Of a DNA stretch of 32,000 bases, positions 12,987-32,000 are shown piece after piece. Where the stretch lies: the NCBI RefSeq assembly GCF_000189295.2, contig NC_016803.1:2400001-2432000 (forward strand). Reading direction: 5' to 3'. The notes under the pieces are model-generated. The model had not been told where the DNA came from. It did no database searches and saw only the letters and a list, made by a program, of their open reading frames with translations. A program made the position numbers and the translations under genes. The first letter of the stretch is position 1; each line of letters starts with the position of its first letter. The DNA is from Pseudodesulfovibrio mercurii (GTDB taxonomy: Bacteria > Desulfobacterota > Desulfovibrionia > Desulfovibrionales > Desulfovibrionaceae).

Positions 12987-13514
12987 CTATTTCCTGGGGT
13001 GCGACCTGCGCCACTGGGCGGGGGTCATGTCCAGGCCGCCCTTGCTCCAGAAGCCGCGCCGCGCCTGCCGGGCCTCGGCCTCGGCCTGCCGGATGCGCTC
13101 GGCATGGCGGACGTTGGGTTTGACCACCAGGGGGACGGCCAGCCCGGCGCGGACGAGCGCCTCGTTGAGCATGACGCCGTCGGCGTAGACATAGGCCAGG
13201 GTCCGGCCGTAGCGGTCGCGGGGGTCCTTGTCGAACTCCAGGCGCAACCCCTTGCCCTGGCAGAAATCACGGGTGAAGTCGCGGGCCTTGCGGCTGTATT
13301 CCTGCCGATATTCCGGGGCGTCCACGCCGATGAGCCGGACCTCCAGGGTACTTCCCCGGTACGTCACGCGAAAGGAGTCGCCGTCCAGGACCTTGACCAG
13401 CCGGGCCGTGTCGTCGGCGGCCGGGGCGCAGGCGGGCAGGAGCCCGGCGCCGAGACAGACGCAGAAGATGGCGAGAACGAACAGGCGCGGGAAAAGGGTG
13501 TTGCGGTGGTGCAT
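12987..13514 (-). CDS. Secreted/lipoprotein staphylococcal-nuclease (SNase/thermonuclease) homologue
   Basis: Signal peptide ends LLPAC. SNase motifs VRLIGVDAPE and DRYGRTLAYVY. Confidence 0.85.
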   Translation of the reverse strand: MHHRNTLFPRLFVLAIFCVCLGAGLLPACAPAADDTARLVKVLDGDSFRVTYRGSTLEVRLIGVDAPEYRQEYSRKARDFTRDFCQGKGLRLEFDKDPRDRYGRTLAYVYADGVMLNEALVRAGLAVPLVVKPNVRHAERIRQAEAEARQARRGFWSKGGLDMTPAQWRRSHPRK

Positions 13515-13576: not shown

Positions 13577-14407
13577 ATGAAACTGACTTTTCTGGTAGAC
13601 AATAACGCGCTGGTGGGCAGCCAGTACCTGGCCGAGGCCGGGCTGTCCATGTTCATCGAGGCGGACGGACAACGGGTGCTGTTCGACACCGGGTATTCGG
13701 ACGCGTTCCTGGTCAATGCCCGGCGCAAGGGCGTGGACCTGCTGCGCCTGGATTGGATCGCCCTGTCCCACGGCCACTTCGACCACACCTGGGGGCTGGG
13801 CATGTTGCTGCGCCAATATTGCGAATCCGGCCTCCGGGACCTGCCCCGGGCGAACCTGCTGGCCCACCCCAAGGCCGTGGAGACCAAGCGGCACCGAGGC
13901 ATCATGGAATTCGGCCCCCTGCTGTCCAGGGACAAGCTGGCGAGCTATTTCGACCTGAAGCTCACGACCGAGCCCACCTGGCTGACCGACTCCCTGGTCG
14001 GCCTGGGCGAGATCGAGCGGACCATGGACTTCGAGACGCCCGCAACCCTGGGCGAACGGCTGGAAAACGGCGAATTCGTGCCGGACGACCTCCCGGACGA
14101 CACGGCCCTGACCTACGTCACGGACACGGGGCTGGTGGTCATCGCGGGCTGCGCCCACACGGGCATCTGCAACACCGTGGAGCAGGCGAAAAAGGTGACG
14201 GGGGTGGACAGGGTGCGCGCGGTCCTGGGCGGTTTCCACCTGCAAAAGGCCGGACCCGAGCGGCTCGGCCCCACTGCGGACTACCTGGCCGCGCTCGATC
14301 TGGAGGGGCTGTGGTGCTGCCACTGCACGGATCTTGCCGCCAAGATCGCCCTGGCCGCCCAGTGCCCGGTCAGGGAAGTGGGCTCCGGCCTGAGCCTGGA
14401 GTTCTAG
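13577..14407 (+). CDS. MBL-fold metallo-hydrolase (COG1237-like)
   Basis: Motifs MKLTFLVDNN and LSHGHFDHTWG. Start set at ATG 13577 (GGAGGCCCTGATG). Confidence 0.85.
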   Translation: MKLTFLVDNNALVGSQYLAEAGLSMFIEADGQRVLFDTGYSDAFLVNARRKGVDLLRLDWIALSHGHFDHTWGLGMLLRQYCESGLRDLPRANLLAHPKAVETKRHRGIMEFGPLLSRDKLASYFDLKLTTEPTWLTDSLVGLGEIERTMDFETPATLGERLENGEFVPDDLPDDTALTYVTDTGLVVIAGCAHTGICNTVEQAKKVTGVDRVRAVLGGFHLQKAGPERLGPTADYLAALDLEGLWCCHCTDLAAKIALAAQCPVREVGSGLSLEF

Positions 14408-14463
14408 GCGGAATCAATGCACCGCGCCGGATCAGGCGCGGACGAACTGGGACGCCCCCGGTC

Positions 14464-14646
14464 CTAGGCCACCGCCGACAGCGCCCACCCCCCGTCCAAC
14501 ACGCCCACCCGGCAGGCATAGTCCGCCAGCACCCACCGCCCGTACGCCGGGCCCCGGACCCAATAGAGATTATTGAGGAGAAAGGGGATGACCGCGATCA
14601 GGTAGAGCATCCACTTGTTGCCGCGTGCGTTCATTTTGTCCTGCAT
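14464..14646 (-). CDS. Possible small membrane protein or gene fragment
   Basis: A 60-aa ORF with one hydrophobic helix (WMLYLIAVIPFLLNNLYWV). The SD is weak, and an internal ATG (MNARG) has AGGA upstream. It could be a truncated remnant. Confidence 0.25.
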   Translation of the reverse strand: MQDKMNARGNKWMLYLIAVIPFLLNNLYWVRGPAYGRWVLADYACRVGVLDGGWALSAVA

Positions 14647-14717
14647 CGTTACTGCCGTCTCGGTTCACGCTGCGGAATCCATATGACAACAGATATCGTC
14701 CAGACAAAGGAGGAGAT

Positions 14718-15152
14718 ATGCCGATCCGATACGAATTCATGGGGCGCGCCAAACTTATCAAGGGCTATTCCTATCCGGTCAAGAGAAGCGAACTCGACGC
14801 CGCGCTCGAACAGGCCGGAATTCATGAACCAGGCCGGATTTTTTATTCCTCCCGCTACGACGATTCCGACATGAAGGTACTGAGCGTGTTTCTCATGGGG
14901 GAGTCGCAGCAAGGTTACCGAATCAGGAACACGCCCGTGATCAGCGCGTACTCGGTTCCTGCGAACCAACGCCCCGAGATACGACGCCTCCTGGAACGGC
15001 AGGACATCCTGCCGCGCATTGCCGCCTGGCTGAAACGGCTGGAGGACGCCACCAATGTCATCCGGGGCGTCAATCAGGAAATCATCGTTTTCTTCACCGA
15101 CGCAGCATTGTCTTTCAAAGACCGACACAATAAAACAGTGGAGTTGCCTTGA
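14718..15152 (+). CDS. Hypothetical protein (144 aa), no recognisable domain
   Basis: Strong RBS AAGGAGGAGATATG. An ORF in a low-GC stretch is unlikely to be open by chance. Its stop TGA sits in the loop of the shared terminator hairpin. Confidence 0.65.
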   Translation: MPIRYEFMGRAKLIKGYSYPVKRSELDAALEQAGIHEPGRIFYSSRYDDSDMKVLSVFLMGESQQGYRIRNTPVISAYSVPANQRPEIRRLLERQDILPRIAAWLKRLEDATNVIRGVNQEIIVFFTDAALSFKDRHNKTVELP

Positions 15153-15170
15153 GGCAACTCCACTGTTTTA
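15131..15170. terminator. Bidirectional intrinsic terminator shared by convergent island genes
   Basis: A 13-bp perfect stem, CAGTGGAGTTGCC (15136-15148) with GGCAACTCCACTG (15153-15165), and loop TTGA. AATAAAA lies upstream and TTTTA downstream. Confidence 0.8.
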
Positions 15171-16007
15171 CGTCACCGGGCTTTCCGGGTCATACCCTCG
15201 TATGAGTTTCCTCAATTGGTCCTCGTTAAAAGGTGTGATCAAAGGTACTTTCATAAAAAATCGGTCCATAAGCTTGATCGCTCCCTTGATTGCATCCTTT
15301 CTCCTCAACAGATTCTGCCGTTCCTTGGGGGTTTGAGCTTCCTTGGCCTGCTTGCTCAAGGTATCAAGTTCATGCTTCGCTGCCGCTTTGAACCCTGATC
15401 GGTCCCCACCGTGCTCTTCCAACAATTTCCGAACGGCAGGATCTTGCGATACCAGCTTCCCTTTGCCGTGCTGGCCGTTGGACTGAACCATTCCGCCCAA
15501 AGCCCCAGCAGGGGCAGCGGCTTCTTTGCCTGAAGAACTCCCACTATCCCTTGAAACCGACTGAGGATTGCCGAAAGCCTCCGGCTTATCCCCTGGTTGG
15601 CGGGCCGGAGACGGTCCTTCGCCTCCTGCCACTTTGGCCGCCCCGCTCTCCTTCGCCGCCCGCCCGCCCATGGCGAGCAGGGTGCGGGGCGCGGGCTGGT
15701 TCCCGGCGGGCGCGGGCCGGTTCGTCGGCACGTTCGTCTGTTTGCTCGCGGTCCCGCCCGGGCGGCCGTAGTCGTGATTCAGGGAGACCGTCTTCCCCTC
15801 CTCGGCCGGGTCCCGGTCGAGCGGCTTGTCCACGGTCCACCAGTCCAGGGAGCGCTCGTTGCCGTGGAACTTCCTGCCCAGGCTGCCCTCCTTGCGGACC
15901 GGCTCCATCACGCCGTCCGCGTATTCGAGCCACTGCCGTTTGGGTTCGCCGGTGAACGTATCCATCCTAGTACGGGTAAATGCGTCGCTTTCCAACAGAT
16001 CGTTCAT
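15168..16007 (-). CDS. Hypothetical protein (279 aa) with long Gly/Pro/Ala/Ser-rich low-complexity centre
   Basis: RBS GAGAGGAGAACCGATATG. The ends look ordered, including a helical C-terminal part (KHELDTLSKQAKEAQTPKERQNLLRRKDAIKGAIKLMDRFF). They flank a low-complexity segment of about 110 residues. Confidence 0.65.
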   Translation of the reverse strand: MNDLLESDAFTRTRMDTFTGEPKRQWLEYADGVMEPVRKEGSLGRKFHGNERSLDWWTVDKPLDRDPAEEGKTVSLNHDYGRPGGTASKQTNVPTNRPAPAGNQPAPRTLLAMGGRAAKESGAAKVAGGEGPSPARQPGDKPEAFGNPQSVSRDSGSSSGKEAAAPAGALGGMVQSNGQHGKGKLVSQDPAVRKLLEEHGGDRSGFKAAAKHELDTLSKQAKEAQTPKERQNLLRRKDAIKGAIKLMDRFFMKVPLITPFNEDQLRKLIRGYDPESPVT

Positions 16008-16040
16008 ATCGGTTCTCCTCTCGTATTTGCTTGTTTCCTG

Positions 16041-16068
16041 GAAAAGGGCCTCCCGGAGGAGGCCCTTG
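16041..16068 (-). terminator. Intrinsic terminator/attenuator inside the island operon
   Basis: The minus strand reads AAGGGCCUCC-UCCG-GGAGGCCCUUUUC. It lies between the 81-aa gene and the 279-aa gene. Confidence 0.6.
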
Positions 16069-16119
16069 GGGCGGGGGGAGGAAGAGGCCCCCCCTAGGTT
16101 TGTCGCGGATCGACGGCGG

Positions 16120-16365
16120 TTAGGCGGGGATCACGGTGACCGTGCCGTCGGCGTTGGCGGCGACCATCAGGTCGATGGCCGAGGCCATGCCCGCGCCGGT
16201 GCAGGCGATGACGATGTCGCCGGTTTCGAGGTTGTAGTCCTCCACCGCCTGGTCGAAGTAGCCCGACCCGGCCACGGTGGCCGCGTCGTCCTCGGAACGA
16301 TAGATGAACAGCTGCTGGCCGGGCACTCCGCCCATGAGCCGCATGTCTTCGCTGGTATATGCCAT
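16120..16365 (-). CDS. Small hypothetical protein (81 aa) following the capsid-like gene
   Basis: RBS AAAGGAGAA 8 nt before the ATG. The pattern [36 protein letters not shown] recalls small proteins that I remember following capsid genes in some phages. This is not verifiable here. Confidence 0.7.
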
Positions 16366-16380
16366 GGTTGCGTTCTCCTT

Positions 16381-16408
16381 TTGCGGTTGGTTGCGGTTGG
16401 TTGCGGTC
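16381..16408 (-). repeat. 2.7 copies of a 10-nt tandem repeat (coding strand CCAACCGCAA) filling the capsid/81-aa spacer
   Basis: TTGCGGTTGG occurs at 16381-16390 and 16391-16400. A partial copy TTGCGGTCCT at 16401-16410 runs into the capsid-gene stop codon. Confidence 0.8.
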
Positions 16409-17242
16409 CTAGTCGATGGCGGCGTCGTCGTCGCACTGGATCTGGACCACGCCGTCCGGGTCGATGAGGCAGGCCCCGGCCGAGAGCATGTGGTCCACCA
16501 GGTGGGCGGCCTTTTCCGGGACCCAGTCCACGAAGGCCTGGACCTTCTGGCCCTCGGCCAGGCCCGCGGCGTTGCGGTGGTAGATGTAGCACTTGCGCAT
16601 GCCCGCCTCGTCGAGGGGCAGGCCGGTGTGGAACATCCAGGTGATGCCCAGCCAGGTGCGGGACTCGGTACCCTTGAGCCAGGCGTACTGCTCGCCCGCG
16701 TAGTCGCTGGACTTGAACTCCTGGATGTTCAGCAGCTCGTTCCACTGGTGCGGGCCGACCACGGCGAAGCGGTGGCCGTCGTCGGGCACGTCGTTGGCGT
16801 TGAGCGTGCCGAAGGCCTGGAGGATCTTGTCCTTGGTCAGGCCGGTGGCCGCCTCGCCGACCACGTTGGTGGCCCCGTCGAGCTCGGTGATGAGCAGTTC
16901 GTCGATCTTGCGGCCCAGCGCCCAGGCGCCCGCATTGGCGGCCACCTGCTTCTCGTCGCTCTTGTCCTTGAGCTCGTCGAGCTTGTCGATGTACTCGGCG
17001 GCGTACCAGTCGGACAGGGTGCAGGACACGTTGGAGTGGTTGAGGTTCATGAGCGGCACGTTGCCGTGGCGGGTCTTCTTCCCGGCCGCGCCCTTGCCGA
17101 TCTTCTGGAAGACGCACTTGGAGCCTTCCACCTCGGTCTGGAGGCGCACGGTCTGGCGCATCTTGGAGCCCTGGGCCTGGTAGGCCTGGTGCACCATCTC
17201 GACGTACTGGGTGACAAAGGCGTTGCTGACGGTCGTGGACAT
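16409..17242 (-). CDS. Phage-type (HK97-fold, podovirus/T7-like pattern) major-capsid-like protein, 277 aa
   Basis: Start at MSTTVSNAF with RBS AAGGAGAAACCAATG. The N-terminal pattern [41 protein letters not shown] and the segment [16 protein letters not shown]...[13 protein letters not shown] parallel the T7 gp10 layout as I recall it. The remainder of the listed 829-aa ORF is an antisense artefact. Confidence 0.6.
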
Positions 17243-17321
17243 TGGTTTCTCCTTGTCCGTTGCGGGTTGCTTCAGACCGGGTATCCGAGCAGCGTCCTTT
17301 CGCGGGTGTCCGGGGTCGGCG

Positions 17322-17336
17322 GGCGAACCGTTCGCC
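17322..17336. promoter_or_regulatory. Perfect 7-1-7 palindrome GGCGAAC-C-GTTCGCC upstream of the capsid-like gene
   Basis: Read directly from the sequence. It lies 80-94 nt upstream of ATG 17242, in the 207-nt divergent region. Confidence 0.35.
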
Positions 17337-17341
17337 TGCCG

Positions 17342-17376
17342 CCTCCGGGCCGGGTGCGAGACCTCCGGGCCGGGTG
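17342..17376. repeat. Two perfect 15-bp direct repeats CCTCCGGGCCGGGTG with a 20-bp period
   Basis: Copies at 17342-17356 and 17362-17376. They lie between the capsid-like gene and the dus-like gene. Confidence 0.8.
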
Positions 17377-17449
17377 AGCAGACCGTACCACGGGTTTTTG
17401 GCCAACCCCGGTTTTGTCGAAGAATGTCAGGGAAAAACAGTCGAGAGGT

Positions 17450-18544
17450 ATGAAAAAGCAACTTGACAGGGTGGCGAATCCAGGCAGATTCGGCGGGATG
17501 CAGCTGATCGAAGACACGCTTGAGGGCGAACTGGCCGAACGTCTGAACCGGCCCCTGACCGTCGGCGGCCGGACCGTGGCCAACCGCCTGTGGCTCGCGC
17601 CCCTGGCCGGGCTCAGCCACGTGGCCTTCCGCGAGGTCCTGGACGGCTACGGCGGGTGCGGGCTGACGTTCACCGAGATGTGCGGGGCCAAGAGCCTGCC
17701 CACCGAGAGCCCGCTGGTCTCGCCGGTCTTCCGCTGGCGCGCGGCCGAGCTTCCCCGCCTGGTCTGCCAGGTGGCCGGGGCCACCCCGGAGCAGATGATC
17801 CCGGCCGCCCGGCGCGTGCAGGAGTGCGGGTTCTTCGGCTTCGACATCAACATGGGCTGCTCGGTCTCGGGCATCATCAAGAAGAACGCGGGCGCGGCCC
17901 TGCTCAGGGACCCGGACGCGGCCCTGCGCGTGGTCGAGGGCGTGCGCCGGGCCATCTCCATCCCCCTGTTCGTCAAGTTCCGCACGGGCTGGACCCCGGA
18001 CATCGGGCCCGCCGTGGCGCTGGCCCGCCGTTTCGAGGACGCGGGCGTGGACTGCCTGGTCTTCCACCCGCGCGTGGCCCCGGACAAGCGCACCCGGCCG
18101 CCGGTGCGCGAGCACATCAGGGCCGTGGTGGACGCGGTGTCCATCCCGGTCTTCGGCAACGGCGACGTGGTCTCGCCCGAAGACTGCCTGGACATGCTCC
18201 GGACCACGGGCTGCGCCGGGGTCTCGGTGGGCCGCACGGCCATCGCCCGGCCCTGGCTGTTCGCCCAGTGGACCACGGGCCAGACCCCGCCCGCGACCTG
18301 TTTCCGCGACTACGCCCTGAACCTGGCCGACGCGCTCTCCCGCCACTTCGACCCGGTGCGGGCCCTCAAGCGGTATCGGATGTTCACCATCTACTTCGCG
18401 GCCAACTTCACCTTCGGCCACGCCCTGCAATCCCGGTTCCTCAAGGCCAAGACCATGGATGAAATACGTTCCGTGGCGCAAAACCACATACCGCCCGACC
18501 TGCAACTGGTCAGACGGCCCAATTTCAGTCTCTACAACATCTGA
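17450..18544 (+). CDS. tRNA-dihydrouridine synthase (Dus) family flavoenzyme
   Basis: Motifs LAPLAGLSHVAFREV, TEMCGAKSL, FDINMGCSVSGIIKKNAGAALL, VKFRTGW and GNGDV. The start is uncertain: ATG 17450, TTG 17414 or a later ATG. Confidence 0.8.
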   Translation: MKKQLDRVANPGRFGGMQLIEDTLEGELAERLNRPLTVGGRTVANRLWLAPLAGLSHVAFREVLDGYGGCGLTFTEMCGAKSLPTESPLVSPVFRWRAAELPRLVCQVAGATPEQMIPAARRVQECGFFGFDINMGCSVSGIIKKNAGAALLRDPDAALRVVEGVRRAISIPLFVKFRTGWTPDIGPAVALARRFEDAGVDCLVFHPRVAPDKRTRPPVREHIRAVVDAVSIPVFGNGDVVSPEDCLDMLRTTGCAGVSVGRTAIARPWLFAQWTTGQTPPATCFRDYALNLADALSRHFDPVRALKRYRMFTIYFAANFTFGHALQSRFLKAKTMDEIRSVAQNHIPPDLQLVRRPNFSLYNI

Positions 18545-30704: not shown

Positions 30705-31616
30705 ATGACCATATCCGACATGAAACTGTACGACTTCGTCGATCCGGTGGACGCCGAGTGCGTCCGGCGGGAGACCGAGGACCTCATGCGGGCGCTCTTT
30801 CCCGACTGCGACGCCACCCTGTTCCGCACCGCCTTCGCCGACGTGGAGGACCTGTTCGCGGGCCGCTACCCCGGCTACCGGGCGAGCAACACCCGCTACC
30901 ACAACTTCGAGCACACCTGCTCCGTGGTCCTGGCCTCGGCCCGCCTGCTCTACGGGGCCATGGTCCAGGGCGAGCCCCTGACCGAGGCCGACTGCCTCAA
31001 GGGACTGCTGGCCTCGCTCTTCCACGACGTGGGCCTCATCCAGGACGTGGACGACACCCGGGGCACCGGGGCCAAGCACACCGTGGGCCACGAGGAGCGG
31101 TCCATCCTGTTCATGCGCGGCTACCTGGACAACGTCCTGTCCGAACAGGACATCGAGGACATCGCCGACTGCATCCGCTGCACCATCCTGGCCATGCCGC
31201 CCTCCAGGATCGCCTTCCGCACCGAGACCATGCGCCTGATGGGCTACTTCACCGGCACCGCCGACCTGCTGGCCCAGATCGCGGACCGCTACTACCTGGA
31301 AAAGCTCCTCCTGCTCTTCGAGGAATTCAAGGAGGCCAGGCTGCCCGGCTACGACAGCGCCTTCGACCTGGTGATCAAGACCCGCTCCTTCTACAAGGAC
31401 GTGGCCCGCCCGCGGCTGGACCGCGAATTCAAGGGCGTGGACCGCCACATGCTCGCCTACTTCCGGTCCTGGCGCAACGTGGACAAGGACCTCTACCGGG
31501 AGGCCATCGACCGCAACCTGGCCTACCTGGACAAGATACTGGCCGAATGCAATGCGAACCTGGACGAATTCGTGGCCAGACTCCGCCGCAGCAACAACCA
31601 GGAACCGCTCTGCTGA
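30705..31616 (+). CDS. HD-superfamily phosphohydrolase with class-I-PDE-like motif series
   Basis: Motifs YHNFEH (aa 65-70), FHDVG (106-110), GHEE (128-131) and TADL (184-187). It starts 4 nt after the upstream stop. Confidence 0.7.
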   Translation: MTISDMKLYDFVDPVDAECVRRETEDLMRALFPDCDATLFRTAFADVEDLFAGRYPGYRASNTRYHNFEHTCSVVLASARLLYGAMVQGEPLTEADCLKGLLASLFHDVGLIQDVDDTRGTGAKHTVGHEERSILFMRGYLDNVLSEQDIEDIADCIRCTILAMPPSRIAFRTETMRLMGYFTGTADLLAQIADRYYLEKLLLLFEEFKEARLPGYDSAFDLVIKTRSFYKDVARPRLDREFKGVDRHMLAYFRSWRNVDKDLYREAIDRNLAYLDKILAECNANLDEFVARLRRSNNQEPLC

Positions 31617-31671
31617 CGGCCGCCGTCCGGCCGCCCCTGTTCCGCCGGGCCACCAAGGGAGACGACAACGC

Positions 31672-32000
31672 ATGAACCGCGACACCCAGGCCTTCGAATC
31701 CATGTTCATCGCCCGCCAGCCGGTCTTCACGCCCGACGAGTCCGTGTGGGGATACGAACTGCTCTTCCGCACCGGCCGCGACAACGTGGCCGTGATCGGC
31801 GACGAGTCCCAGGCCACGGCCTCGGTCATCGCCGACGGCCTGACCCTGGCCACCGATGGCATGGACCAGGCCGCCCGCATCCTCATCAACTTCCCGGAAA
31901 AACTGCTCGTGGAAGACGCCGGGTTCGCCCTGCCCAAGGACCGCTGCGTGGTCGAGATCCTGGAGAACGTCCGGCCGAGCAGGGCCGCCCTGGCCGCCAC
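31672..32000 (+). CDS. EAL-like / HDOD-type signalling protein (YuxH-like), 3' end cut by window edge
   Basis: This ORF is not in the supplied track because no stop is reached. ATG 31672 opens a frame that stays open to base 32000. The N-terminus is MNRDTQAFESMFIARQPVFTPDESVWGYELLFR. RBS AAGGGAG. Confidence 0.65.
   Translation, partial: MNRDTQAFESMFIARQPVFTPDESVWGYELLFRTGRDNVAVIGDESQATASVIADGLTLATDGMDQAARILINFPEKLLVEDAGFALPKDRCVVEILENVRPSRAALAA

Follow-up and report, generated by a model that had tools for sequence, protein, structure and literature searches.

A capsid gene cassette in Pseudodesulfovibrio mercurii as the likely head-shell module of a scattered, domesticated podovirus

The window, meaning the whole 32-kb stretch of Pseudodesulfovibrio mercurii DNA that was analyzed, contains three minus-strand ORFs at positions 15168-17242 that encode proteins of 277, 81 and 279 aa, exactly as an earlier note on this DNA had placed them. 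An AGGAGAA motif precedes all three genes, in keeping with the strong and similar Shine-Dalgarno contexts described there. The flanking synteny of the capsid site is dus/cyclase/MBL/SNase. The features of the locus are as follows.

16409..17242, minus strand: gene for the predicted 277-aa major capsid protein (MCP), from the ORF and from Pfam, PHROG and PDB homology
17247..17254, minus strand: Shine-Dalgarno sequence of the capsid gene, AAGGAGAA, as read from the sequence
16120..16365, minus strand: gene for a putative 81-aa head decoration or cement protein consisting of the capsid-binding base only, from its position, phrog_18004 and a profile match to 9EG4_H
16042..16065, minus strand: GC-rich hairpin followed by UUUU, terminator- or attenuator-like, between the 81-aa and 279-aa genes
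15168..16007, minus strand: gene for a 279-aa polymorphic "C-family" protein with an N-domain, a disordered linker and a helical C-terminal cassette
15753-16007: N-domain of the 279-aa protein (aa 1-85)
15171-15497: C-terminal cassette of the 279-aa protein (aa ~171-279)
15123..15171, no strand assigned: bidirectional terminator hairpin common to the convergent 279-aa gene and ORF D
14715..15152, plus strand: ORF D, 145 aa, low in GC and without a family match, in the variable island that separates the 81-aa and MBL genes

The start of the capsid gene at 17242 was set by its Shine-Dalgarno sequence and by alignment of homologues; an 829-aa ORF that overlaps the gene was rejected as a high-GC artefact. 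A consensus scan of positions 14400-17500 returned no sigma-70 promoter. The hairpin at 16042-16065 folds at -24 kcal/mol (z=-3.5), and none of 200 shuffled sequences folded equally well. Because this hairpin intervenes, the capsid and 81-aa genes appear to form a tight unit of which the 279-aa gene is at most a read-through member, so that the three-gene operon proposed earlier holds for its first two genes and needs this qualification for the third. In its place behind the capsid genes the hairpin resembles the T-phi terminator of phage T7, which sits after gene 10; the comparison is an analogy only. The hairpin at 15123-15171 folds at -33.8 kcal/mol (z=-8.9).

A Pfam scan of all other credible ORFs in the window turned up no gene for a portal, a terminase, a tail protein, an integrase or a lysis protein. 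The ORFs with a Pfam match belong to housekeeping or regulatory families only, and those lacking one lie at 14715-15152 (ORF D), 30705-31616 and 31552-31998. A tblastn search of the window with phage-module proteins from related loci was likewise without a match, and the claim that no other phage gene occurs in these 32 kb is upheld by both searches. ORF D has a strong Shine-Dalgarno sequence (AAAGGAGGAGATATG), a GC content of 0.55 and a GC3 of 0.68, and matched no family in Pfam, PHROG, PADLOC or NCBIfam. Its homologue in the related locus L001 (69% identical) occupies the same place but beside a different neighbour. ORF D was considered as an immunity gene for the 279-aa gene, a role left unsupported by its convergent orientation and by the unrelated membrane protein that it adjoins in L001; the 279-aa gene has no co-directional immunity gene beside it, ORF D being its only neighbour. 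For the four genes from MCP to ORF D, PADLOC gave no defence-system match and NCBIfam only a sub-threshold N4-type capsid match.

The 277-aa protein matches Pfam family PF19821 (Phage_capsid_2) at E=1e-72, scoring 245.3 bits where the gathering cutoff is 25; the match spans nearly the full length of the protein, with residues 5-271 covering positions 1-292 of the 293-position profile. It also matches PHROG 3437 ("major head protein") at 3e-67. When a profile of the MCP alignment was compared with the PDB, residues 1-268 aligned to positions 1-284 of 9EG4 chain A, the MCP of Legionella podophage LME-1 (E=2.4e-31), whose T=7 capsid was solved by cryo-EM (PMC12407071). In total, 1248 homologues were found, with 97-98% identity across Pseudodesulfovibrio species. 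An AlphaFold2 (AF2) model of the capsid protein from a 17-sequence alignment reached a pLDDT of 40 and was too poor for use or for Foldseek, so the HK97-fold assignment rests on homology to 9EG4. Judged from this homology, the protein is an HK97-fold MCP of the LME-1/pelagiphage-type podovirus lineage and is predicted to assemble into particles, which substantiates the podovirus-type HK97 capsid protein that had been proposed. The remark that it is unlike the linocin-type encapsulins also stands, as the sole significant Pfam match is a phage capsid family. The nearest cultured phages are podoviruses of 31-37 kb, including Methylophilales phage MEP301.

In the window, in phage MEP301 and at essentially all of 66 related loci, the 81-aa gene directly follows the capsid gene on its 3' side. 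Its product matches phrog_18004 at 3e-12, and the top PDB match of a family profile built from 21 sequences is 9EG4_H, a modest hit (E=6e-4, residues 16-82) to the expected partner chain of the MCP, namely the LME-1 head decoration protein orf16. This decoration protein has been described (PMC12407071), and its accession, ALK43931.1, directly follows that of the LME-1 MCP, ALK43930.1. Only the base region of the 269-aa orf16 aligns, and the distal, outward-projecting domain is absent from the 81-aa protein. The 81-aa protein thus matches a minimal head decoration or cement protein of the orf16 type, which would comprise the capsid-binding base only.

The capsid gene is domesticated, vertically inherited and under strong purifying selection. 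Across Pseudodesulfovibrio species with MCPs of 97-98% identity, the flanking housekeeping genes are 65-85% identical; where the MCP is 98% identical, Dus, the cyclase, MBL and SNase are 81, 84, 77 and 65% identical, respectively. The dN of the MCP gene is 0.009-0.011 compared with 0.09-0.27 for the flanks, approximately 10-fold lower, and its GC3 is 0.98 as against 0.88-0.91. A dN/dS calculation, which the earlier note had suggested as a check, gave an omega of 0.05-0.08 for the MCP against its relatives and 0.23-0.31 for the 81-aa gene. The underlying NG86 dS values are squeezed by the very strong codon bias, and gene conversion or interspecies exchange may likewise lie behind the unusually low dS of the MCP. 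The MCP tree tracks host clades, each of which has its own fixed flanks (mbl-SNase; udpgp). Within the genus the capsid genes stay at one chromosomal site, and the capsid-81aa pair persists in several genera (67-98% identity); all copies are full length. Together with host-optimal codon usage, these data favour domestication over decay. That the locus is instead a decaying prophage remnant, intact by chance or through recent acquisition, is extremely improbable: the lack of other phage genes around the capsid genes of the window and the foreign composition of the adjoining island (GC 0.52-0.55 in the C-terminal cassette of the third gene and in ORF D) would suit the last fragment of a decayed prophage, one of the two origins first offered for the locus, but the low omega and dN, the GC3, the fixed site and the full-length copies speak against it, and a very recent horizontal sweep of a mobile cassette is unsupported, there being no mobility genes.

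Particle genes that are missing from the window occur elsewhere in the chromosomes of close relatives. In P. methanolicus, the MCP, 81-aa and C-family genes are found at 446 kb, where the dus/cyclase/MBL/SNase synteny of the window is repeated, and portal, Bbp19 and scaffold genes are found at 640 kb, surrounded by deo/TusA/RlmN genes. The large terminase gene (TerL) of P. thermohalotolerans is situated among housekeeping genes, and scaffold and TerL orthologues are present in P. karagichevae, indicus, cashew, sediminis, pelocollis and others. A gp11-like tail gene is found 4.4 kb from the MCP gene in P. pelocollis, and gp12-like and fibre genes sit together in an island of their own on contigs of 188-227 kb in relatives. 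The islands consist of two to five genes and are up to ~190 kb apart. In other Desulfovibrionaceae, the whole module is contiguous and in T7 order, which is taken as the ancestral arrangement, with TerL, portal (PF12236), scaffold, MCP, 81-aa gene, tail (phrog_394/376), internal virion protein and fibre. The islands examined in relatives and in the window showed neither an integrase nor a repressor nor any replication gene, and a small terminase (TerS) was not identified among the module genes of relatives. Because close relatives keep the other particle genes at other loci, the capsid genes of the window are best seen as one locus of a dispersed gene set for a whole particle. The description of an orphan shell is therefore correct within 32 kb and misleading beyond it, given that relatives hold TerL, portal, Bbp19-like, scaffold, tail tubular A/B and fibre genes elsewhere. 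Extrapolating from relatives with 95-98% identical MCPs, P. mercurii would be expected to possess terminase, portal and tail genes too.

We consider it likely that this locus is the head-shell module of a scattered, domesticated podovirus that encodes a particle resembling a gene transfer agent (GTA), a function predicted from the genes. It is hypothesized that an ancient podovirus-derived particle system became fixed in the Desulfovibrionaceae chromosome and was then broken into several small islands. The first gene of the locus would supply the HK97-fold MCP, and the second a minimal cement protein binding between capsomers. TerL, the portal, a Bbp19-like protein, a T7-gp9-like scaffold, tail tubular proteins A and B and a fibre, which were seen in close relatives, would be provided from elsewhere in P. 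mercurii. The assembled parts would yield a short-tailed, DNA-packaging particle under host control. The third gene would contribute an accessory, recombining effector, with an N-domain that may attach it to the head or bring it inside and a C-terminal cassette that is exchangeable.

As in the known GTAs (RcGTA, BaGTA, VSH-1 and VTA), the phage-derived structural genes are chromosomally fixed, vertically inherited and under purifying selection; no lysogeny or replication genes were seen at the islands examined, and several loci are involved, as in RcGTA. Unlike in those systems, the genes here descend from a podovirus module of T7 order and LME-1/pelagiphage type that has no relationship to the sequenced GTA modules, the fragmentation is more extreme, and the element is known from genes alone. 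Compared with LME-1 (9EG4), MEP301 and the HTVC019P-type pelagiphages, the MCP is homologous (35-42% identical to those of MEP301 and pelagiphage) and is likewise followed by a small gene, and the gene order (portal, small ORFs, scaffold, MCP, small ORF, tail A, tail B, internal proteins, fibre) is shared, whereas those phages are autonomous with contiguous genomes of 31-37 kb and the genes here are chromosomal, scattered and host-adapted. Dd1 of Desulfovibrio desulfuricans, a GTA from the same bacterial family as P. mercurii, is reportedly short-tailed, with a head of ~43 nm and 13.6 kb of DNA. A link between Dd1 and the scattered particle genes is hypothetical; the capsid family was not seen in D. 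desulfuricans among the matches listed.

The third gene is of a different nature. AF2 modelled residues ~10-80 of the 279-aa protein as an ordered N-domain (pLDDT >90), residues 83-170 as a linker of low confidence and residues 185-250 as an ordered, helical C-domain; these boundaries agree with the layout that had been read from the sequence, two ordered ends and a linker of ~100-110 aa. The protein had no match in Pfam, PHROG, PADLOC or NCBIfam, and residues 171-279 contained no toxin domain recognizable by the same four. When PDB and BFVD were searched with the model by Foldseek, no hit had E<0.1; matches of the helical domain to encapsulated ferritins (E~0.6) were set aside as non-significant hits to generic helical hairpins. 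The N-domain has neither a signal peptide nor a known secretion-system domain and was unrelated to the gp11-like tail protein family by hhalign, at a match probability of 0.1%. The 52 representative relatives, designated the C family, share only this N-domain (residues ~1-85), and their C-termini are shuffled among at least five types of cassette, with stand-alone cassettes also present (P0371, P0409, P0411). In the 279-aa gene, the cassette has a GC of 0.52 and a GC3 of 0.60 compared with a GC3 of 0.87 for the N-domain.

Toxin or lytic domains were recognized in several C-family members: an RHS/YD shell with Ntox44 in P0400 (Rhs_assc_core, TIGR03696, 68 bits), Ntox44 in P0407, RHS in P0403-5, Peptidase_M15/VanY in the member at L024 and a weak CHAP match in P0395. 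Small ORFs lie directly downstream of the toxin-bearing members. A C-family gene adjoins the MCP-81aa pair in the window and in L006, L008, L019, L023, L024, L062, L068 and L160, and the scaffold gene in L067 and L161. The pair occurs with no C-family gene in L002, L003, L005, L007, L011, L018 and the whole udpgp clade; the 279-aa gene is accessory. The C family belongs with polymorphic effectors, having a conserved N-domain and exchangeable C-termini, and is tied genomically to head genes; gene neighbourhood suggests that the N-domain associates with the head. The earlier idea of a cargo partner with a disordered linker thus survives insofar as the third gene is part of an effector family tied to head genes, and fails as a fixed partnership, given its absence from many relatives.

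These features allow a more specific reading, in which particles carry C-family effectors (RHS/Ntox44, peptidoglycan hydrolases) packaged in the head into competitors, and DNA merely pressurizes or completes the head. A precedent exists in the MuF-domain polymorphic toxins of temperate phages, in which a conserved N-domain is joined to variable C-terminal toxins (Jamet et al. 2017, PMC5576092). The C family is alike in having an N-terminal domain that is linked by neighbourhood to head genes and fused to variable C-terminal domains. It differs in that its N-domain is unrelated (no Pfam or PHROG match and no significant fold match), its genes reside in chromosomes rather than prophages, some members have an RHS shell, and its association with the head is a prediction. 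Features typical of polymorphic toxins (a common N-domain, an RHS core, Ntox44, M15 peptidase, a weak CHAP match, stand-alone cassettes and small downstream ORFs), the lack of a signal peptide or secretion-system domain and the repeated adjacency to head genes all fit delivery by the particle. However, the RHS/Ntox44 members examined do not adjoin head genes, the window member has no toxin domain, and many genomes with the capsid genes have no C-family gene nearby. We regard this weapon-like role as doubtful; it is compatible with a GTA role and the two are not mutually exclusive. We also put forward, tentatively and as a rather unlikely extension, that a scattered, podovirus-derived particle factory loads heads with exchangeable effectors, such as RHS/Ntox44 toxins and cell-wall hydrolases, through the ~85-aa N-domain, a domain not described before, forming a protein-delivery or competition system that might be the genetic basis of Dd1.

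An autonomous, encapsulin-like nanocompartment, in which the capsid and 81-aa proteins would form a closed shell around the 279-aa protein, held by a targeting region and independent of phage machinery, is improbable. Encapsulins comprise Linocin_M18 (family 1) and families 2-4. They resemble the present system in their HK97-fold shell protein, encoded in the chromosome away from prophages and beside a candidate partner with a disordered region, and 32 kb devoid of other phage genes, strong purifying selection on the capsid gene and the ferritin-like Foldseek hits (E=0.6) would accord with such a shell. Yet those hits are below significance, the shell protein falls in a true phage-capsid family, PF19821, which was its only significant Pfam match and is not known as an encapsulin family, and relatives conserve terminase, portal, scaffold and tail genes at other loci, which would be useless to a closed protein shell. 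The partner is also dispensable, the capsid-81aa pair being conserved without the 279-aa gene in many relatives. As a candidate for dedicated cargo of the encapsulin type, a C-family gene adjoins ~9 MCP loci and is missing from many others. The nanocompartment reading given earlier is therefore disfavoured.

There is also a slim chance that the capsid genes are kept for an anti-phage or satellite function, either as a decoy that interferes with related podoviruses or as a capsid-forming island that hijacks a helper. Some MAGs contain both related, genuinely prophage-like contiguous modules and split copies (L040/L043, L041/L046), so interaction with incoming related phages is conceivable. Against this, PADLOC matches none of the genes, the islands are fixed and immobile with no integrase or replication genes, and interference requires no full set with tail and terminase. 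A capsid-forming satellite (cf-PICI) was rejected, as the islands are without mobility genes and at fixed sites.

The preferred reading, a scattered and domesticated podovirus with a GTA-like particle, would add to a small group. No description of this element was found in the literature on Pseudodesulfovibrio/Desulfovibrio GTAs or T7-like conserved prophages. To our knowledge, sequence-defined GTAs are few and none is known from a T7-order podovirus, and Dd1 (1987), the sole GTA reported from the Desulfovibrionaceae, was never tied to genes. A capsid gene that is more conserved than its housekeeping neighbours, together with scattered terminase, portal, scaffold and tail islands, provides a concrete and testable GTA candidate, and shows how far a domesticated virus can fragment while under selection. 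If the C family is truly packaged, it would extend the MuF-toxin idea to a particle owned by the host and would represent a new trafficking domain for polymorphic toxins of sulfate reducers, organisms that matter in corrosion, in sediments and in the gut.

Three intact ORFs encoding proteins of 277, 81 and 279 aa lie on the minus strand of 15168-17242, each with AGGAGAA 6-9 nt 5' of its ATG. The genes considered here are as follows.

16409-17242, minus strand: major capsid protein (MCP) gene, 277 aa
16120-16365, minus strand: 81-aa protein gene, putative cement
15168-16007, minus strand: 279-aa protein gene, a member of the C family
14715-15152, plus strand: ORF D, 145 aa, without a family match, with a strong Shine-Dalgarno (SD) sequence and GC 0.55, convergent with the 279-aa gene
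12987-13514, minus strand: secreted-type staphylococcal nuclease (SNase) homologue adjoining the MBL gene

An 829-aa ORF call for the first gene was discarded as a high-GC artefact; its true start is 17242, since the SD motif and the N-termini of all homologues fix it. A Pfam scan placed the other credible ORFs of the 32 kb in housekeeping or regulatory families only (histidine kinases, HSP20, aspartase/fumarase-type lyase, SpoU, SLT-LysM, HD, SBP, HAD, SNase, MBL, Dus, cyclase, Fe-ADH, PhzF, prismane and cupin), bar three without a match (ORF D, 30705-31616 and 31552-31998). A tblastn search of the window with phage-module proteins of related loci gave no match. The factual points of the earlier note (three ORFs, their SD sequences and no other phage gene) were all correct.

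Over its whole length the 277-aa protein fits Pfam PF19821 (Phage_capsid_2; E=1e-72), and in PHROG it matches family 3437, 'major head protein'. Its profile matches chain A of PDB 9EG4 (E=2.4e-31), in which the T=7 capsid of LME-1, a short-tailed Legionella phage, was solved by cryo-EM at 2.1 Å (PMC12407071). By homology it is the podovirus-type capsid protein that the earlier note had proposed. Homologues in the database numbered 1248, and the best 120 matches of each protein searched were examined. The nearest relatives in GenBank phages are podoviruses of 31-37 kb (a pelagiphage, Methylophilales phage MEP301 and Vibrio phages), at no more than 42% identity except for an unannotated 5-kb faecal fragment. 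Among the matches listed, MCP identity is 95-99% for named species of Pseudodesulfovibrio and ~70% for other Desulfovibrionaceae, Humidesulfovibrio and Desulfocurvus among them.

The 81-aa gene directly follows the MCP gene in essentially every locus, also in true phages, and its product falls in a PHROG without assigned function. The best PDB match of a 21-sequence profile was 9EG4 chain H (LME-1 orf16), at a modest E=6e-4, with residues 16-82 aligned around a common GYF...GD(I/L)I core. The LME-1 head decoration protein, whose accession (ALK43931.1) directly follows that of the MCP (ALK43930.1), has a trimeric base bridging capsomers and a distal part projecting outward (PMC12407071). The 81-aa protein is the counterpart of the base only, and we read it as a minimal cement protein. 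Just 5' of its SD, the MCP-81aa spacer (16366-16408, minus strand) holds a direct repeat, CCGCAACCAA, in ~2.5 copies.

A GC stem of 10 bp with UUUU after it (-24 kcal/mol, z=-3.5) separates the 81-aa gene from the 279-aa gene. Because it sits before the 279-aa gene, the core bicistron consists of the capsid and cement genes; the 279-aa gene would be reached via read-through or its own promoter. T7 likewise carries a terminator after gene 10, which may be the analogue of this hairpin. A 19-bp hairpin (-33.8 kcal/mol, z=-8.9) at the boundary with ORF D is a single terminator common to the two convergent genes.

Sixty-six genomic loci of relatives were retrieved, and their genes were called, clustered and identified. 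A contiguous T7-order module with the MCP occurs in Desulfovibrionaceae loci L025, L037, L043, L044 and L046 and in a Rhodospirillaceae clade: large terminase (TerL), portal (PF12236), a gp9-like scaffold (~290 aa; some members match PF05396), MCP, 81-aa gene, tail tubular A (phrog_394), tail tubular B (phrog_376), internal virion protein and tail fibre. The cultured phage MEP301 shows this order too. Intermediate states were also found: the module broken up by host genes (L025), portal-scaffold-(1-2 genes)-MCP-81aa without tail genes (L016, L019, L023), and MCP-81aa followed by UDP-glucose pyrophosphorylase (~15 Humidesulfovibrio/Desulfocurvus loci). The Pseudodesulfovibrio state, that of the window, is MCP-81aa-(variable)-MBL-SNase, and arrangements cluster by host clade in the MCP tree.

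In the window's own clade the remaining structural genes lie elsewhere. P. methanolicus, whose MCP is 97% identical, carries MCP-81aa-C at 446 kb with dus, cyclase, MBL and SNase genes around it as in the window, and a second island at 640 kb, 89aa-portal(583 aa)-Bbp19-like(76 aa)-scaffold(280 aa)-112aa, flanked by deo genes on one side and TusA/RlmN on the other. Among the matches listed, scaffold orthologues occur in P. karagichevae, indicus, thermohalotolerans, cashew, JC047, sediminis, pelocollis and senegalensis (21 locus tags from the MCP in P. cashew and 41 in JC047), and TerL orthologues in P. thermohalotolerans (surrounded by CBS, thioredoxin and acetyl-CoA-synthetase genes), indicus, portus, piezophilus, tunisiensis, senegalensis and others. 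In P. pelocollis a gp11-like (tail tubular A) gene and the MCP are 4.4 kb apart. The gp12-like (tail tubular B) and fibre genes form a separate island on metagenomic contigs of 188-227 kb; on one of these (L078) the genes next to the island share 70-80% identity with Pseudodesulfovibrio genes. Integrase, repressor and replication genes are absent from every island of the clade. The capsid gene is thus no orphan: some relatives carry contiguous phage modules, and it has scaffold, portal, TerL, tail and fibre at other loci in its own clade. Because these islands hold the remaining structural genes without integrase, repressor or replication genes, the window appears to be one island of a scattered, complete particle gene set, as read in close relatives.

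Several further observations concern these loci. Rhodospirillaceae MAGs (L048, L050, L053, L054, L059, L060, L065) have the full contiguous module in a common internal order, several with the same flanking non-phage clusters (c7, c13, c19, c25), which suggests either a shared integration site or a further copy that is inherited vertically and possibly domesticated. Two MAGs have two capsid paralogues each (L040/L043 and L041/L046), one in a split or reduced context and the other in a full module with terminase and portal, so domesticated and prophage-like copies coexist. A conserved group, DUF5675 (phrog_1501)-HTH_17-NlpC/P60 cell-wall hydrolase-flavin reductase-~350-aa protein (L069 757-2795, L076 1810-5139), lies near TerL in P. 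thermohalotolerans and, in another genome, adjoins a gp11-like tail gene and a C-family toxin of RHS type. Possibly this group is one more island of the element, for lysis or regulation. A TPR-repeat protein of ~320 aa (cluster c15), encoded on the opposite strand (L069 9028-9987, minus; L014, L017, L019, L023, L037), lies directly upstream of the MCP in L017 and L019, is separated from it by small ORFs in L014 and L023, and adjoins TerL in P. thermohalotolerans. A part in regulating or assembling the element is conceivable. The SNase homologue of the window matches the PADLOC candidate-defence model PDLC01096 (SNc+LTD; E=5e-20) and is syntenic with the capsid locus throughout Pseudodesulfovibrio.

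We propose that the islands' genes would direct the host to make short-tailed particles. These would package DNA, since terminase and portal are conserved, and probably host DNA, as no contiguous element genome exists to package, which would make the system like a gene transfer agent (GTA). We consider this reading as a whole probable.

The 279-aa protein adds a second component. Only 52 relatives emerged when 1.84 billion representatives were scanned in full with HMMER; they are alike in residues ~1-85 (W-x-Y-x-D-G-x-x-E-P-V-R...D-W-W...K-P-x-x-W-x-P...N-H-D-Y-G). Beyond ~85 there are at least five unrelated C-terminal cassette types, some also found as stand-alone ORFs. Longer members carry an RHS/YD shell with RHS-associated core (TIGR03696, 68 bits) and C-terminal Ntox44 toxin (P0400), Ntox44 alone (P0407), RHS (P0403-P0405) or a weak CHAP match (P0395), and a member at L024 has a VanY/M15 peptidase. 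Small ORFs lie directly 3' of toxin-bearing members. In polymorphic toxin systems the N-terminal domain sets the delivery route, and the layout of the C family is of this architecture. Its N-domain gave no family or fold match, and inspection of the N-terminus revealed no signal-peptide-like hydrophobic stretch. A C-family gene directly follows MCP-81aa in the window, L006, L008, L019, L023, L024 (two copies), L062, L068 and L160, directly follows the scaffold in L067 and L161, lies 7.5 kb from a gp11-like gene in L076, and has no phage gene within 10 kb in L070. Of seven members chosen irrespective of capsid genes, two adjoined head genes, one lay close to a tail gene and two lay elsewhere; for the other two the contigs were too short to tell. 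Gene context thus points to a head-linked polymorphic effector family, whose proteins would ride in or on the head via the N-domain; MuF toxins have been proposed to do likewise in phages (PMC5576092). C-family genes or bare N-domains (L067 11017-11355, L161 5001-5810, L068 11225-11845) follow both the scaffold and MCP-81aa, the two sides of the broken ancestral scaffold-MCP junction, and the module may have been scattered by recombination between C-family paralogues, of which some are 'rearrangement hot spot' (RHS) proteins.

In the window's own member, AF2 predicts a beta-rich N-domain, a disordered linker of ~90 aa and a confident helical hairpin, in agreement with the two ordered ends and linker described earlier. 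The N-domain has host-like GC3 (0.87) and the C-terminal cassette GC 0.52 and GC3 0.60; this cassette and ORF D look recently imported. We call the protein a putative effector, not a toxin, because it has no toxin domain and the window holds no co-directional immunity gene. The interval from the 81-aa gene to the MBL gene is a variable island. D. caledoniensis (L001 12134-12568) has a 69% identical copy of ORF D at the same site, beside an unrelated low-GC 334-aa ORF in place of a C-family gene; that ORF has no family match and by eye resembles a multi-pass membrane protein. Many relatives have no C-family gene at the capsid site, so the 279-aa gene is accessory. Effector delivery as the main function seems unlikely to us.

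A nanocompartment, the domesticated shell of the earlier note, is improbable beside the conserved terminase and portal, and we give as little credence to a defence or satellite role. The last fragment of a decayed prophage, the other earlier suggestion, is rejected on the conservation of the MCP, its low dN and omega and its high GC3. Identity to D. caledoniensis L001 is 98% for MCP, 90% for the 81-aa protein, and 81, 84, 77, 65 and 84% for Dus, cyclase, MBL, SNase and HAD; for L002 the values are 89, 76, 74, 78, 65 and 52%, with no HAD match among the flanking genes compared. By the Nei-Gojobori method (window against L001, L062 and L068), whose dS values are distorted by codon bias, dN and omega are 0.009-0.011 and 0.05-0.08 for MCP, 0.06-0.08 and 0.23-0.31 for the 81-aa gene, and 0.09-0.27 and 0.20-0.53 for five flanking genes. 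GC3 is 0.98 in MCP and 0.88-0.91 in its neighbours, the mark of a host-adapted, probably highly expressed gene, and accounts for part of the low dS of MCP. The locus is vertically inherited under purifying selection. For the same genome pairs, dS is 0.14-0.18 in MCP and about twice as high, 0.26-0.57, in adjacent genes. The simplest cause of the low MCP value is extreme codon bias; alternatively, the capsid gene could have undergone conversion or exchange between species.

The closest known kind of system is the GTA. Sequenced GTAs have other ancestry and are less fragmented, whereas this set derives from a T7-order podovirus of LME-1/pelagiphage type and has only 2-5 genes per island. Dd1 of Desulfovibrio desulfuricans is short-tailed, and we know of no gene assignment for it. 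It is one of five listed GTA types, with only cursory characterisation (PMC11841831, PMC11409702). The scattered gene set is a natural candidate for the Dd1 genes. Full-text literature searches found no description of such a scattered podovirus element, and a second new feature is the N-terminal domain of a polymorphic effector family that gene context links to the head.
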